Under the pieces are notes generated by a model that was given only the letters and a program-made list of their open reading frames with translations, made no database searches and was not told the origin of the DNA. From Escherichia coli (GTDB taxonomy: Bacteria; Pseudomonadota; Gammaproteobacteria; Enterobacterales; Enterobacteriaceae): DNA of 64,000 nt. The stretch is taken from the NCBI RefSeq assembly GCF_024298765.1, contig NZ_CP101210.1. One strand, 5' to 3'. Shown one piece after another: positions 22,185-60,710 of the stretch. Both the position numbers and the translations under genes were made by a program. How positions within the stretch are numbered: the stretch's first letter is position 1; every line of letters begins with the position of its first letter.

Positions 22185-25248
<3,064 letters not shown>

Positions 25249-26933: not shown

Positions 26934-28274
26934 TCAATGCAACTCATCAAGTTTTCTCATCGCTTGTTCCCGTATTGCGCGCGTCTTACCGTTAAGCGCC
27001 AGCTGGCGGACTAAATCCAGTTCAGGGTTAACAAGCTCTAACGCCAGCAAAGGATCACGTTTCAGCCTCGCCTTTAATACATCAACTGGAAAACGGGGAT
27101 TATTCATCGCCACAATCCACCACTCGGGATCAATTTCTGCCGCCAGTACTGCAGGCGGTGTGTGGCGGTTGTTAAGTGCGCCGAACTTGAAAAATGTGAG
27201 ATTGCTTTTCGCCAGTGTACTCCACCATATACGATCCGGTTGTTTTGCCAGTACATCCAGTTGTGCTAACGCATCGGGTTCTAGTGCATAATAAACACGT
27301 AACGCTTCGTTAACCTGCGCACGGGAACTGTTTTCCTGCCTCAGAAAAAACTTCGCCCAAATATCATTTCGTGGCGTGTTTTGCTGTAATTCCTTTAAGC
27401 CTTGGGAGAGTTCGCATTATGGCAAGATCAAATGTCGCAATGTCTCGTCCTTCAAATGCAGCAACGTTGCCTTCATCCAGCATTTGCAATTCCTGCAATA
27501 ATTCAGGAGAAGACTTAGGGCGAAACAGCGCTTCTTTTTTCATCTGATTACAGACATTCCCTGCTATGCGAATATTGCTTCGCTTAAAAATTTCTTTCAG
27601 AGCATCTTCATCATTTATTAGGCCCCAATAATATGCATCAGGATTTATTATCATCAGCGCTTTTTTGACATTTTCAGTGTCATTTTTGTCACTCGCACGG
27701 ACCATGAATTCACTATTTGTCGAAGATGCAACAACAGGTGCAATTATGTCATTGATAAATATCCCGCGCGCATTAATACTTCCCTTAATCGTAGACGGAT
27801 TATCGTAATATGAGTCGATAAATACCAGTCCACTTGCATTTATCGAACCGGTAATTAACAGTGGTGAATCCGTAACTATATTCGTTGCCGTTACGTTACG
27901 TTACGTTACGTTACGTTACGTTACGTTACGTTACCGAGAATAACCCATGGATTAGAAAGAGAGAAAGTGGAAATATTACCTTTGACTGTCAAATTGCCAA
28001 GAACAATCAATTTTTGATTACTCTCTATATTACCTTCTACCATTAAATCGCCACGATGCACTTTCCAGTCCGATGCAGATAAACCGACGGGGACAAGATT
28101 CACGCTACTGTTGATAGCTTGTTCAACTTGTTGTTTATCTTCAGCGGTAGCCGCAGAAAAAAATGGTTCAATATCAACTGCATTTACAACACATCGAAGT
28201 TCCGCCTGTACTGGAAGACTCAGCATAAACAGGGGAAGTAAACCTATCCAGCTGCAAATCCTGGGCTTAAACAT
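26934..28274 (-). pseudogene. ydbD: Decayed ydbD-like gene for a secreted protein: N-terminal signal-peptide segment, stop inside a pentanucleotide repeat, further frameshift near 27364-27420
   Basis: Three collinear minus-strand coding segments in different frames (28274-27921, 27900-27364, 27417-26934), hand-translated; sits where ydbD lies between ydbC and ynbA. Confidence 0.5.
27889..27933. repeat. Perfect pentanucleotide microsatellite (CGTTA)9; TAACG on the coding strand
   Basis: Read directly: cg + ttacg x8 + ttac; the minus-strand reading frame terminates at TAA inside the array. Confidence 0.95.
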
Positions 28275-28334
28275 ATGCACTCCATGCCATTAAAAAAGAA
28301 TAAATATCCTCCGGCATAGCCGGAGGTTTTTCAA

Positions 28335-29046
28335 ATGCGCCTATAAGGCTCTCTTACCAGCCGCGCCCTAACAGGCGCACACGATCTGACATTTGCATCC
28401 AACTTCGTTACTTACGGCCCGTAAACGGGCTGCCCGGATAGGGAATCGATAACTGCTCTCCCATTTTATCCTCTTCAAGCTGGTGCTTTATGTAATCCTG
28501 TATCTTCGCCGTGTTCTTACCCACCGTATCGACGTAGTACCCTCTGCACCAGAACTCTCTGTTCCTGTATTTGAATTTCAAATCACCAAACTGCTCGTAA
28601 AGCATCAGACTGCTTTTCCCTTTCAGATATCCCATAAAGCCGGATACACTCATTTTGGGCGGGATCTCCACAAGCATATGGATATGATCTGCACAGCATT
28701 CAGCTTCAAGAATCCGTACGCTTTTCCACTCACACAGCTTTCTCAAAATACTGCCTATTGCTCTACGCTTCTCTCTGTAGAACACTTGTCTTCGGTATTT
28801 TGGCGCAAAAACTATGTGATATTTACAGTTCCATCGGGTGTGCGCTAAGCTCTTTTCGTTCCCCATTGGGACCCCCTTTTGATTTCTTGTTTGACACTTG
28901 CAGTTGCCAGACCGCAAGGTGTTTTAACAAATCAAAAGGGGTTTTAATAACTGGCTCAAAGCTGAAAGCTTTCCGGAACCCCCAGCCTAGCTGGGGGTTT
29001 TCTGTGCACAAACAAAAGGGAAATGCATCTTTCCCTTTTGTATATT
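28335..29046 (-). mobile_element. IS200-type insertion sequence (IS200/IS605 family), ends approximate
   Basis: Y1 transposase gene plus upstream hairpins (aacccccagcctagctgggggtt; aaaagggaaatgcatctttccctttt); no terminal inverted repeats expected; ends estimated from ~707-bp size. Confidence 0.8.
28408..28866 (-). CDS. tnpA: IS200 transposase TnpA (Y1 / HUH family)
   Basis: 152 aa from MGNEKSLAHTRWNCKYHIVFAPKYRRQVFY... with HxH motif (HIHMLVEIPP). Confidence 0.9.
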   Translation of the reverse strand: MGNEKSLAHTRWNCKYHIVFAPKYRRQVFYREKRRAIGSILRKLCEWKSVRILEAECCADHIHMLVEIPPKMSVSGFMGYLKGKSSLMLYEQFGDLKFKYRNREFWCRGYYVDTVGKNTAKIQDYIKHQLEEDKMGEQLSIPYPGSPFTGRK

Positions 29047-29048
29047 CG

Positions 29049-29909
29049 TTATTCTCGCGAAATACCGTCCAACGTAGACAACACTTCCTCAGAAAGATGC
29101 AATTTTTCAGCAGCCATATTCTCCCGTAAATGCGCAACAGAAGACGTCCCTGGGATCAGCAAAATATTCGGTGAACGCTGTAACAGCCACGCCAGCGCCA
29201 CCTGCATTGGTGTTGCGCCCAGGCTCGCTGCTACATCCGAAAGTGTGGAGGATTGCAGCGGCGTAAAGCCCCCAAGCGGAAAGAACGGCACGTAGGCAAT
29301 GCCGTCACGAGCCAAAGCATCAATCATTGCGTCATCAGCACGATGAGCAATGTTGTATTCGTTCTGCACACAGACGATTTCGGTAATCTTACGCGCCTCT
29401 GCAACCTGCGTCGGTGTAACGTTGCTCAGACCAATATGTTTTACCAGGCCTTGTTGTTGCATCTCTGCCAGTACGGTCAGGCTGGCTTCAATCGATCCTT
29501 CCGCTGGGCCATGACCATCCCCCATCATAACGCGCAGGTTAACCACATCCAGTGCGCCCAGCCCGAGATTACGTAGATTATCGTGCACCGCTTTTTGCAG
29601 CTCTGCCGGAGAAAATGCGGGCAACCAGGATGCGTCCTCTCCACGCCGCGCACCAATTTTAGTGACAATTGTCAGGTCGTCAGAGTAAGGATAAAGCGCT
29701 TCGCGGATAATCTGATTGGTGACGTGCGGACCATAAAAGTCGCTGGTATCAATATGATTGACGCCCAATGCCAGCGCCTCACGCAGCACGGTTATAGCGA
29801 CGTGGCGATCTCTTGGGGGGCCAAAAACCCCAGGACCTGCCAGTTGCATCGCGCCATAACCAAGACGGTTAACGGATTTTGTACCGAGAGTAAATGTATT
29901 GCTGCTCAT
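29049..29909 (-). CDS. ydbC: Aldo-keto reductase family NAD(P)H-dependent oxidoreductase YdbC
   Basis: ORF 29049..30062; start set at MSSNTFTLGTKSVNRLGYGAMQLAG (286 aa). Confidence 0.9.
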   Translation of the reverse strand: MSSNTFTLGTKSVNRLGYGAMQLAGPGVFGPPRDRHVAITVLREALALGVNHIDTSDFYGPHVTNQIIREALYPYSDDLTIVTKIGARRGEDASWLPAFSPAELQKAVHDNLRNLGLGALDVVNLRVMMGDGHGPAEGSIEASLTVLAEMQQQGLVKHIGLSNVTPTQVAEARKITEIVCVQNEYNIAHRADDAMIDALARDGIAYVPFFPLGGFTPLQSSTLSDVAASLGATPMQVALAWLLQRSPNILLIPGTSSVAHLRENMAAEKLHLSEEVLSTLDGISRE

Positions 29910-30063
29910 CGCACCCTGCCCTGTAATAAAACGGATTAAGAAAAATAGTATAGAAACGAAAAGAGATAAATAATGCGAAGGCGTAAACAAGATTACTGGA
30001 TGAGTTGCTCTATTGCCCTGAAAGACACCAAAACAAAACGCGTCAAGTACCGCATCCGGCAAT

Positions 30064-30094
30064 AAAAAAACCGCAACCTGTATCAGCGTTGCGG
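30064..30094 (-). terminator. Rho-independent terminator after paaY
   Basis: Hairpin accgcaacc...ggttgcggt followed on the minus strand by U7. Confidence 0.7.
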
Positions 30095-30139
30095 TTTAGG
30101 TATCACATGCTAAAAATTAGAACGTCCAGCATCAGGACG

Positions 30140-30730
30140 TTACTGTTTCGGTCGCAGATTCTCATCAAATACCAGGCGCTGCCTGCCAGGTTCAACTTCC
30201 CGCAATGGCTCAACTTGATGCAACGTCTGCTTACTGCGTGTCACCAGCACCTGATACTCATGCGTGCCCTGCTTTTTCCATGCCAGTTCCTGCTCACTAA
30301 GTTCACGAATCGCTTTTGCCGGGCTGCCGACAATCAGGTAATTAGCAGGCATTTCTGCTTTGGCTTTCACAAATGCGGAAGCGCCAACAATGCTGTTCTC
30401 GCCAATCACCGCACCGTCCATCACTACCGCGTTCATACCCACTAATGCATTGCGGCGGATAATGCAGCCGTGAAGGATAGCGCTATGACCAATATGCCCA
30501 TCTTCTTCCACGACAGTATCCTGATCGGGAAAACCGTGCATAACGCAATTATCCTGAATGTTCGCGCCATCTTTCACCACGATACGACCGAAATCGCCAC
30601 GCAGGCTGGTATTTGGCCCAACGTACACGCCCTTGCCGAGAATAACATCGCCGATCAATACCGCTGTCGGATGGACAAAACTCTCTTCTGGCACAAACGG
30701 AGTCAGACCGTCTATCTGATAAATTGGCAT
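30140..30730 (-). CDS. paaY: Phenylacetate-pathway hexapeptide-repeat protein PaaY
   Basis: 196-aa [32 protein letters not shown]... Confidence 0.9.
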
Positions 30731-30880
30731 AACGCCTCCTGTTCAATATTCAAGCCGCCAAAACGTTGAAAATACAGGCTTCCCGGCGCAGGCAATTCAC
30801 CGACCGAGGTTTCACCTTTTTCACTAACGAACGCTAAAGCAGCAGGCGCTACGCGCTGATAAAGTTTGCCGATAAAGGTT
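30712..30880 (-). pseudogene. paaX: Probable 3' remnant of paaX (C-terminal ~55 codons only)
   Basis: Minus-strand ORF ends 19 nt into paaY as in a paaX-paaY operon; upstream part of the ORF is antisense to the feaR remnant; boundary approximate. Confidence 0.45.
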
Positions 30881-31071
30881 TGGTAGTCGCGCAATATATC
30901 CGTAACCGTCGTCTCGATTTTTGTGCAGATGCGATTCGCCATGCCGCAGATGATGAAAAACTGGCAGGCATTGGCTTTCATTGGGGATTTTCCGACCAGA
31001 GTCATTTTTCAACGGTATTTAAGCAACGCTTTGGGATGACGCCAGGCGAGTATCGACGTAAATTCCGCTAA
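30880..31071 (+). pseudogene. feaR: 3' remnant of an AraC-family regulator, probably feaR (C-terminal HTH only)
   Basis: 63-aa ORF ending ...GFSDQSHFSTVFKQRFGMTPGEYRRKFR, a typical AraC C-terminal helix; convergent with ydbL as feaR is. Confidence 0.5.
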
Positions 31072-31109
31072 CTAATTCGCGTTGCATGTACAGCAACGCG
31101 AATTAGTTA
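31070..31109. terminator. Long perfect hairpin between the feaR remnant and ydbL
   Basis: ~17-bp stem ctaactaattcgcgttgc / gcaacgcgaattagtt. Confidence 0.6.
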
Positions 31110-31242
31110 AAACAGATATTTGACTATGCATTTTTCAGGGCGAAAGGCAATTTGACAGGAATTTTTGAATATTCACGTTGTTTCCGGAAAATAGATTAAT
31201 CGTCTTCTCCTGTAGCGTTATCCCGATATTGCGGTTTTGCTA

Positions 31243-31569
31243 TTAAAATTTTCGCACCCATTTACCGTTTATCCCTTGTACATATTCCCCGGGTTTGGCC
31301 CGTTCTACAAGCTTTTGCCCGGCGAGTTTCGCGATATCATCCACCGACACATTATTCTGCTTTGCCAGTTGTTGATAGCTCGCTTTACGTTCGGCATTGA
31401 TGTCGGTTACTAATTTCTCAGTTTCAGCATCTGTTTTCAGCGCAACCAGATAACCATAAAATGTTTCGCCTACCCGCCCCTGAGTTCTGGCTTCATCCAG
31501 AGTCAATGCCATTACATTGCTGCTTACCAAGCCAACAAGAAATGCACAAAGAAGTAATGTTCTTTTCAT
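31243..31569 (-). CDS. ydbL: DUF1318-family periplasmic protein YdbL
   Basis: ORF 31243..31650; start set at MKRTLLLCAFLVGLVSSNVMA (108 aa, signal peptide). Confidence 0.85.
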   Translation of the reverse strand: MKRTLLLCAFLVGLVSSNVMALTLDEARTQGRVGETFYGYLVALKTDAETEKLVTDINAERKASYQQLAKQNNVSVDDIAKLAGQKLVERAKPGEYVQGINGKWVRKF

Positions 31570-41747: not shown

Positions 41748-42263
<516 letters not shown>

Positions 42264-42270
42264 CACTAAC

Positions 42271-42295
42271 GCCCGCACATTGCTGCGGGCTTTTT
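42271..42295 (+). terminator. Rho-independent terminator of uspF
   Basis: gcccgcacattgctgcgggc + ttttt. Confidence 0.8.
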
Positions 42296-42438
42296 GATTC
42301 ATTTCGCAAATGTGCTGACATTTTCCCCTCTAATCCGTACCATACACGCCACAGTTTTTATATCAGATTTCTTATGCTGGGCGTTCCGGCATGACGCATA
42401 CTCTTCTGATGCCATATAACGAATTGAGTCGCTTTTAA

Positions 42439-43374
42439 ATGTCGCAAAATCAAGAAATTAGTAAGAAAGAACAATACAACCTGAACAAATTACAAAAACG
42501 TCTGCGTCGTAACGTGGGCGAAGCCATTGCTGACTTCAATATGATTGAAGAAGGCGATCGCATCATGGTTTGCCTCTCCGGGGGTAAAGACAGCTATACC
42601 ATGCTGGAAATTCTGCGCAATTTGCAGCAAAGCGCGCCAATCAATTTTTCGCTGGTGGCTGTTAACCTCGATCAAAAGCAACCGGGCTTCCCGGAACACG
42701 TTCTGCCCGAGTATCTTGAAAAGCTGGGCGTTGAGTACAAGATTGTGGAAGAGAACACTTACGGTATCGTGAAAGAGAAGATTCCGGAGGGCAAAACCAC
42801 TTGCTCACTGTGTTCTCGTCTTCGTCGCGGTATCCTTTATCGCACCGCAACGGAACTGGGGGCGACGAAGATCGCGCTGGGTCACCATCGTGACGATATC
42901 CTGCAAACGTTGTTCTTAAATATGTTCTACGGCGGCAAGATGAAAGGTATGCCTCCGAAACTGATGAGCGATGATGGCAAACATATTGTGATTCGTCCGC
43001 TGGCCTACTGCCGCGAGAAAGATATTCAGCGCTTTGCCGATGCAAAAGCGTTCCCGATTATTCCGTGCAACCTGTGCGGTTCACAGCCTAACCTGCAACG
43101 TCAGGTGATTGCTGACATGTTGCGTGACTGGGATAAACGTTATCCAGGGCGTATCGAGACGATGTTCAGCGCGATGCAGAATGTGGTGCCGTCGCATCTG
43201 TGCGATACCAACCTGTTCGATTTCAAAGGTATTACCCACGGTTCTGAAGTGGTTAACGGGGGTGATCTGGCGTTTGATCGCGAAGAGATCCCTCTACAAC
43301 CGGCGGGTTGGCAGCCTGAAGAAGATGAAAATCAGTTGGATGAGTTACGGCTGAATGTGGTTGAAGTGAAATAA
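42439..43374 (+). CDS. ttcA: tRNA 2-thiocytidine(32) synthetase TtcA (intact)
   Basis: 311-aa ORF with PP-loop SGGKDS and CxxC motifs. Confidence 0.95.
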
Positions 43375-43376
43375 CC

Positions 43377-43455
43377 CGGATAGCGCCCGATGCGCAAGCT
43401 TACCGGGCTACTCTTATGGAGGCCGGATAAGACGCGGCCAGCGTCGCATCCGGCA
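43377..43455. repeat. REP (repetitive extragenic palindromic) element(s) between ttcA and dbpA
   Basis: ggccggataagacgcggccagcgtcgcatccggcaa at ~43422-43455 is a classic REP palindrome; second REP-like unit just upstream. Confidence 0.65.
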
Positions 43456-59810: not shown

Positions 59811-60710
59811 CTAAACAGCACCTTTATACTTCAGCCTATCTATAAATAATGAGAATGCCGAGCCAGCATGTCGACGGTGTGGATAGTACAGGTGATAACC
59901 GGGTAAATCTGGTGTGAATTTATCCAAAACACGTATCAGTTTTTTTTCTTTAATAGCCCGCTCAACCTGATCATAAGGTAGATACGCCAATCCATGCCCA
60001 TCAATTGCAGCATCAATGATCAGGTCTATCGTATTCAGTAAAAGCTGACCTTCCATGCGAACACGAACTTCACGTCCACCGCGTATTAATCTCCAGCGAT
60101 TTGCTGTACCCGATGTGGGAAGATACAAATTAATTGCCTGATGATCTATTAATTGTGACACTGAGGTTGGAGCACTTCGACGAGAAAAATAATCCGGTGA
60201 GCCAACAATAGCCATTGGTATATCTGGCCCGATTCGAATGGCGATCATATCTTTATCCATCTCCCCACCCAGACGGACGCCTGCATCAAAACGTTCAGAA
60301 ACGACATCGGTCAAACCATAATCAATGGTAAGCTGGATATCAATTTCAGGATGCGATTTCAGGAATGTGCGCATAGCTGGTAACAATATCGTTTTTGCTG
60401 CATGTTCTACAGTAGTAATACGTATTGTCCCGGATGGGCGGTTCTGCAGATCGCTCAGGGATGTCAGGGCAGAATCTATGTCATGCAACATAGGGCCAAG
60501 AACAGACAAAAGATGCTCGCCCGCTTCAGTGGGTACAACGCTGCGCGTGGTTCGTGTCAGAAGCCGCAATCCCAATCGTTCTTCTATACGGCGCACTATC
60601 TGGCTTAAAGCTGACTGCGCCATGCTCAGGCGGGCTGCTGCGCGAGTGAAGCTACGCTCCTCTGCAACGACGACAAACGCCATCAGATCAGCGATTTCTT
60701 CACGCTTCAT
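59811..60710 (-). CDS. pgrR: LysR-family regulator YcjZ (PgrR, regulator of peptidoglycan recycling)
   Basis: 299-aa ORF with N-terminal LysR HTH; divergent from ycjY. Confidence 0.9.
   Translation of the reverse strand: MKREEIADLMAFVVVAEERSFTRAAARLSMAQSALSQIVRRIEERLGLRLLTRTTRSVVPTEAGEHLLSVLGPMLHDIDSALTSLSDLQNRPSGTIRITTVEHAAKTILLPAMRTFLKSHPEIDIQLTIDYGLTDVVSERFDAGVRLGGEMDKDMIAIRIGPDIPMAIVGSPDYFSRRSAPTSVSQLIDHQAINLYLPTSGTANRWRLIRGGREVRVRMEGQLLLNTIDLIIDAAIDGHGLAYLPYDQVERAIKEKKLIRVLDKFTPDLPGYHLYYPHRRHAGSAFSLFIDRLKYKGAV

Follow-up and report, generated by a model that had tools for sequence, protein, structure and literature searches.

A feaR–paaX deletion joint at the feaRB-tynA-paa locus of an Escherichia coli chromosome

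The feaRB-tynA-paaZABCDEFGHIJKXY locus of Escherichia coli, with the core genes ydbH-ynbE-ydbL on one flank and pdxI/ydbD/ynbA-D on the other, has been recorded as variable in several strain comparisons, of which the passages dealing with this locus are considered here (PMC4951805, PMC5422975, PMC4640556). The stretch between ydbL and ynbC was described as a region of heterogeneity in which ydbA is variably present (PMC4951805, Goldstone et al. 2016), and in one strain panel the paa genes were missing from the single B2 and the single E genome (PMC5422975, Leimbach et al. 2017). A PCR survey detected tynA in 7% of uropathogenic (UPEC) isolates, in none of the O157:H7 isolates and in none of the NBM class, and strain CFT073 was reported to be without 33 kb at this locus (PMC4640556, Elovaara et al. 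2015). The last two genes, paaXY, were described as one auto-regulated operon (PMC4640556, citing Fernandez et al. 2014).

Here, we describe the same locus in a window of 64,000 nucleotides of E. coli DNA, the whole stretch that was analysed, from a strain that is ST117-like and poultry-associated as judged by its nearest relatives. An initial annotation, made from the letters of the window, had proposed a deletion scar in place of the paa cluster and of ydbA. We confirm this observation and support its interpretation, with one amendment: the scar does replace the paa cluster, but the absence of ydbA is a separate event, as the two gaps are kept apart by an intact paaY.

Genes and remnants at the locus

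On the left of the locus, pdxI (ydbC, pyridoxine 4-dehydrogenase) is intact at 29049–29909 on the minus strand, as judged from its open reading frame, the alignment to K-12 and the PGAP annotation of the near-identical locus of strain 104. It is followed, after a spacer of exactly 230 nt, by an intact 196-codon paaY at 30140–30730 (minus strand), which encodes a hexapeptide-repeat thioesterase and was recognized from its open reading frame, the Pfam family Hexapep (E=3.9e-15), the alignment to K-12 PaaY (190 of 197 positions identical, stop included) and the PGAP name paaY. This is the intact gene and the spacing that the initial annotation had given.

Two truncated genes come next. The first, at 30712–30863 on the minus strand, is a 152-nt 3' stump of paaX (50 codons plus the stop) that keeps the native 19-nt overlap with the start of paaY, as in K-12, and differs from K-12 paaX at 1 of 151 compared positions; a Pfam search with the 50-residue fragment gave no match, the stump being too short, so its identity comes from the nucleotide alignment to K-12 paaX and from PGAP. 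The second, at 30864–31071 on the plus strand, is a 208-nt 3' stump of feaR (68 codons plus the stop) that covers the AraC-type helix-turn-helix part; 3 of its 208 positions are different in K-12 feaR, it matches the Pfam families HTH_18 (E=1.9e-15) and HTH_AraC, and PGAP, too, annotates it as a pseudogene. The derivation of both stumps from paaX and feaR was therefore correctly proposed, while their sizes, put at about 55 and about 60 codons, were slightly off. They meet at the joint ...GCGCTGATAAA|GTTTGCCGATAAAGG... at 30863|30864, which BLAST and alignments equate with K-12 1464338 | 1446585 and which falls inside the range of 30860–30900 that had been suggested for it.

To the right, a repeat search found a perfect 17-nt inverted repeat (31069–31109) between the convergent feaR and ydbL; it is also present in K-12 and is probably a bidirectional terminator. 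An intact ydbL at 31243–31569 on the minus strand (open reading frame, PGAP) is the first gene of a conserved right flank that runs ydbL-ynbE-ydbH on the minus strand and then ldhA. The order ydbH-ynbE-ydbL ... paaY-pdxI is collinear with K-12 when reverse-complemented, and the orientation is equal. The chromosome of E. coli strain 104, a chicken isolate (NZ_CP029164.1), has no mismatch and one 5-nt indel over 13.35 kb around the locus, and is identical over a query of 1,351 nt across the remnants (DDV95_RS17565, DDV95_RS17570). The PGAP annotation of that record already flags both stumps as pseudogenes 'missing N-terminus', naming the first 'PaaX, missing N-terminus' and the second just 'helix-turn-helix domain-containing protein', with no mention of a deletion.

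Several other features set parts of the window apart from K-12 or from strain 104. Between pdxI and ydbD, at 26934–28917, there is an IS200C-type tnpA (open reading frame 28408–28917, minus strand), and the frame of ydbD (DUF2773) is degraded; the strain 104 annotation has it frameshifted with an internal stop, and it is intact in ST648 and K-12. At ~41800–43400 (uspF-ttcA-dbpA; coordinates extrapolated from the strain 104 annotation) ttcA adjoins uspF with no prophage between them, a site at which K-12 carries the Rac prophage. A block absent from K-12 lies at 48603–51145, between smrA and an abg remnant, and holds genes for a DHA2-type MFS efflux protein, an HlyD-family protein and an AraC-family regulator; the efflux gene is an open frame of 504 residues in the window and frameshifted in strain 104. 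An AraC-family regulator gene that is intact in strain 104 is split (51239–51520 and 52602–53120) by a 1,057-bp insertion sequence at 51510–52566, which shows that the window does not come from strain 104 itself. The element has inverted repeats GGCTTTGTTGAATAAATC, is flanked by the 9-bp duplicated target site AAGCGGAAA and looks like a member of the IS903/IS5 family; its transposase, of 322 residues, is of the DDE type (Pfam DDE_Tnp_1_5, E=3.8e-40, and DDE_Tnp_1). According to the strain 104 annotation, a partial LysR-family pseudogene (~53294–53489, minus strand) is followed by a 144-nt 3' fragment of an AbgT-family transporter gene (~53510–53653, plus strand) just upstream of ogt (53664–54179), which, if the K-12 gene order is taken as the model, suggests a second putative deletion scar at ~53294–53653, with loss of the abgR-abgA-abgB-abgT operon for p-aminobenzoyl-glutamate. 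Finally, strain 104 carries an ISVsa5 (IS4-like) beside a LysR-family regulator gene after mppA (22761–24998 of its fetched locus), whereas the corresponding part of the window (59811–60710) is without ISVsa5 and has a longer LysR-family open reading frame of 299 codons, in genomes that are otherwise near-identical.

Breakpoints and the separate ydbA gap

When window positions 29900–31250 were compared by BLAST with 5,426 complete E. coli genomes, strains that bear the cluster gave a match in two parts, one covering paaY-paaX as far as query position 967, the other covering feaR-ydbL from query position 962 onwards. In line with the BLASTN comparison to K-12 that the initial annotation had recommended, three-way alignments that include K-12 show that feaR is retained up to K-12 position 1446585 and paaX from 1464338, and that the 17,752 bp from 1446586 to 1464337 are absent at the locus. 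The missing segment comprises the 5' two-thirds of feaR, feaB, tynA, paaZ, paaA-K and the 5' five-sixths of paaX, and thus bears out the proposed loss from within feaR through to paaX. Both sides of the joint align to K-12 at 96–99% identity over hundreds of bases, and with the joint shared by 259 complete genomes, chance plays no part. Since the genes are truncated on both edges, the difference is a deletion here and not an insertion in K-12.

In the orientation of the window, the sequences at the break are GCGCTGATAAATGTTGATAC in K-12 paaX, CCGAATGTTTGCCGATAAAGG in K-12 feaR and GCGCTGATAAAGTTTGCCGATAAAGG in the window. Both parental K-12 sequences contain AATGTT at the break, an offset match of 6 nt, but the product has AA-GTT and is one T short, which shows also as a 1-nt gap in the paaX-side BLAST alignments (103 query bases against 104 subject bases); read strictly, the homology at the joint is 0 nt. 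The joint sequence is wholly accounted for by paaX and feaR, and a repeat search found no insertion sequence, target-site duplication or direct repeat of at least 12 nt bearing on it. The ancestor would have had the K-12-type arrangement ydbL - feaR - feaB - tynA - paaZ - paaA-K - paaX - paaY, in which one event of illegitimate recombination, without a mobile element, would have joined a point in feaR to a point in paaX, removed the 17,752 bp, with the non-functional 3' ends of both genes remaining as stumps in a tail-to-tail arrangement. The presence of AATGTT in both parents and of a product short of one T suggests end joining assisted by microhomology, or replication slippage, with an extra loss of 1 nt, although a blunt joint formed without homology would fit equally well.

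The gap at ydbA has edges of its own. From pdxI onwards, the 230-nt spacer aligns with the K-12 sequence upstream of pdxI, as far as the 3' tip of ydbA and with this tip included. A hairpin with 10-nt arms followed by a T-run on the minus strand (30068–30097), found as an inverted repeat and by alignment to K-12, is the terminator that lies 3' of ydbA in K-12 and has been retained in the window. Alignment to the 3' end of K-12 ydbA further identifies the last 9 nt of the gene, ACGTTCTAA, stop codon included, at 30117–30125 on the minus strand; they are the only trace of ydbA and form the right boundary of a deletion of ydbA/ynbG that is separate from the paa scar, and BLAST homology to ydbA-containing genomes likewise ends at 30125. 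A linker of 14 nt without an aligned K-12 counterpart (30126–30139) leads from this remnant to the paaY stop. Directly after that stop, the linker and the ydbA remnant pair at the novel joint in a hairpin of 7 bp, AACGTCC...GGACGTT, with a T-rich tract behind it (30121–30141, minus strand); the structure is a candidate terminator of paaY. The missing K-12 interval begins shortly behind paaY and extends almost to the end of ydbA, with ynbG, ydbA and the IS2/IS30 copies in it. The retained stop codon, a short remnant, favours a putative deletion rather than an insertion for this event as well. Adjacency of paaY and pdxI without ydbA is found in 2,040 of the 5,426 genomes, and in many of these paaX and the paa genes are intact; ST131 has ydbA without paa. 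The paa and ydbA gaps are therefore independent.

Distribution and origin of the joint

With a 580-nt query across the joint and an E-value threshold strict enough to admit full-length matches alone, the exact joint was found in 259 of the 5,426 complete genomes, in all of them on the chromosome, and its carriers include ST117-type poultry strains, ST648 and E2348/69. They fall into bands of identity to the window. A first group of 78 genomes at 99% or more holds APEC O78:H4, APEC O2-211, MDR_56 and many chicken and turkey isolates, which we take to be ST117 of phylogroup G; 'strain ST648', IMT16316 and MS6198, presumably phylogroup F, stand at 98.6%, smaller groups at 97.8–98.8%, and the records of E2348/69, which we assume to belong to B2, at 94.8%. 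Two of the joint-bearing genomes carry an IS2 or IS1414 within the joint region.

Six aligned lineages share an identical 40-mer over the joint, missing T included, while the neighbouring sequences tell a mosaic history. In paaY, ST117 differs from O158:H23 at 2 of 572 nt and from ST648 at 20 of 572, and in ydbL it differs from E2348/69 at 5 of 408 nt and from ST648 at 21 of 408. Over 360 nt of stump sequence there is no difference between ST117 and ST648, in which both flanks are 3–6% divergent; the paaX stump of E2348/69 differs from that of the other joint lineages at 9–10 of 152 positions, mostly with a change of amino acid. As the joint is identical and the flanks are mosaic, one origin followed by recombination is the reading adopted here: the six sampled lineages and the identity bands fit a joint that would have arisen once and whose flanks later recombined, and spread by descent and spread by transfer both fit the mosaic flanks as far as the sequences can tell. 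The mosaic flanks also show a deletion allele persisting while the neighbouring DNA recombines.

We hold it as highly probable that the feaR–paaX joint goes back to a single deletion of one origin, with flanks reshuffled afterwards, and that the ydbA/ynbG deletion is separate and much more widespread. The opposite direction of change would make the K-12 arrangement the derived one, with feaRB-tynA-paa as an inserted island and the window as the ancestral empty site, in keeping with the passages on this locus that describe a heterogeneous region as inserted between core genes (PMC4951805) and with the 43% of complete genomes that are without most of the segment. An empty site would, however, hold no gene halves, whereas the 3' stumps of feaR and paaX are 98–99% identical to the full-length K-12 genes and the cluster's last gene, paaY, has been kept; moreover, lineages differ in their joints and stump lengths, as repeated deletions would give, and an ancestral empty site is on these grounds highly improbable. 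A sequencing or assembly artefact in the form of a collapsed contig has a negligible probability, as many laboratories have independently assembled complete genomes with this joint, 259 in all.

Instead of a single origin, the same joint could have formed recurrently in separate lineages at an AATGTT hot spot of microhomology, for which the hexamer at the break in both parents and the finding of the joint in genomes with flanks 3–6% different would speak. The idiosyncratic loss of the T is nevertheless common to 6 of 6 sampled lineages, the complete identity of the ST117 and ST648 stumps between diverged flanks indicates one allele in different backgrounds, a match of 6 nt is too weak for repeated identical deletions of 17.75 kb, and the deletion in ST131 used other breakpoints, so that we consider recurrence very unlikely. 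The absence of both regions relative to K-12, together with the IS2 and IS30 inside K-12 ydbA, could also suggest one large deletion that took paa and ydbA at once, or a loss mediated by these elements. Against this stand the intact paaY between the gaps, the occurrence of the ydbA-less joint in about 2,040 genomes, many of which have kept paaX and paa intact, the reverse combination in ST131 (ydbA present, paa deleted), and the lack of any insertion sequence or target-site duplication at either joint, which leave such a combined or IS-mediated event an extremely slight chance.

The loss is not peculiar to the source strain: 3,098 of the 5,426 genomes (57%) contain 80% or more of the 17,752-bp segment, and 1,512 genomes give no match to it at all. 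It is an ordinary deletion polymorphism, already annotated, at a locus already described as variable, and it has little importance past bookkeeping, with no new gene, mechanism or system.

Predicted consequences of the loss and comparison with known alleles

The open reading frames and the syntenic annotation hold no paa gene other than paaY and the paaX stump, and no tynA or feaB gene, in the 64-kb window. Whether paa genes might lie elsewhere in the genome, which the initial annotation had named as a point against its reading, was approached by proxy through the nearest genomes. The joint region and 300-nt K-12 probes for tynA, paaA and paaH were combined in one chimeric query and run at megablast sensitivity, with chromosome records kept separate from plasmids; in the best 60 of the 259 complete genomes that bear the joint, all 99.9–100% identical to the window over the joint region, the three probes had no match elsewhere on the chromosome. 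From the established pathway, the strain is predicted to be unable to oxidise 2-phenylethylamine (TynA, FeaB, FeaR) and unable to degrade phenylacetate (PaaZ, PaaA-K), and the scar accordingly predicts that neither compound would be used as a carbon source.

The intact paaY is left without its operon partner. As paaXY is reported to be one operon, the region upstream of paaX, where the promoter is expected, is deleted here, and a simple promoter scan of 30731–31243 on the minus strand, a weak negative, gave no sigma-70-like site ahead of paaY. An open reading frame of 97 codons (30712–31005, minus strand) fuses antisense feaR to the PaaX tail and is open in all six lineages; at such low divergence, an open frame would carry no meaning. 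In the sampled joint-bearing genomes paaY is intact, with a pN/pS of 0.11–0.30 between haplotypes; these values were rejected as a sign of selection after the deletion, as the haplotypes may predate it or come from paa+ strains. In E2348/69, the paaY stop codon TAA is mutated to TCA and the frame extends to 615 nt. We regard paaY as an incidental survivor, because its haplotypes may be older than the deletion and because ST131 tolerates a truncated paaY.

A more elaborate scenario would have the allele passed between B2 (E2348/69), F (ST648) and G (ST117) by homologous recombination, the loss being advantageous in extraintestinal or avian niches, and the orphan paaY kept functional, expressed through read-through from ydbL and with translational coupling to the chimeric 97-codon frame. 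This we consider unlikely; if it were true, the possible gains of the loss would include avoidance of the H2O2 made by TynA or of reactive intermediates of the pathway.

The window stands beside other alleles of the locus. Strains that are like the window in that tynA and paa are absent appear in the relevant passages of the earlier studies (PMC4951805, PMC5422975, PMC4640556). These passages give presence or absence together with other internal deletions (a paaA-paaK fusion, a loss of paaZABCDE and the gap in CFT073), and a base-resolution description of the feaR–paaX joint was not found in them. In ST131 (e.g., EC958, NZ_CP102947.1), as in the window, feaB-tynA-paa is gone and a 3' stump of feaR stands beside ydbL; unlike in the window, this feaR stump of 252 nt is fused to a truncated paaY of 329 nt, there is no paaX stump, and ydbA is present. 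The ST131-type joint occurs in 564 genomes. Since each of the two alleles keeps sequence that is missing from the other, the deletions in the window and in ST131 are independent. A feaR breakpoint shared with the ST131-type matches was considered, since these begin exactly there, and rejected, the alignment showing the ST131 feaR stump to be 45 nt longer. The exact feaR–paaX joint is a convenient lineage marker, from which the ST131 joint is distinct. E. coli B REL606, like the window, has lost the paa genes at the same locus; unlike the window, it keeps feaR, feaB and tynA, which make up 25% of the segment.
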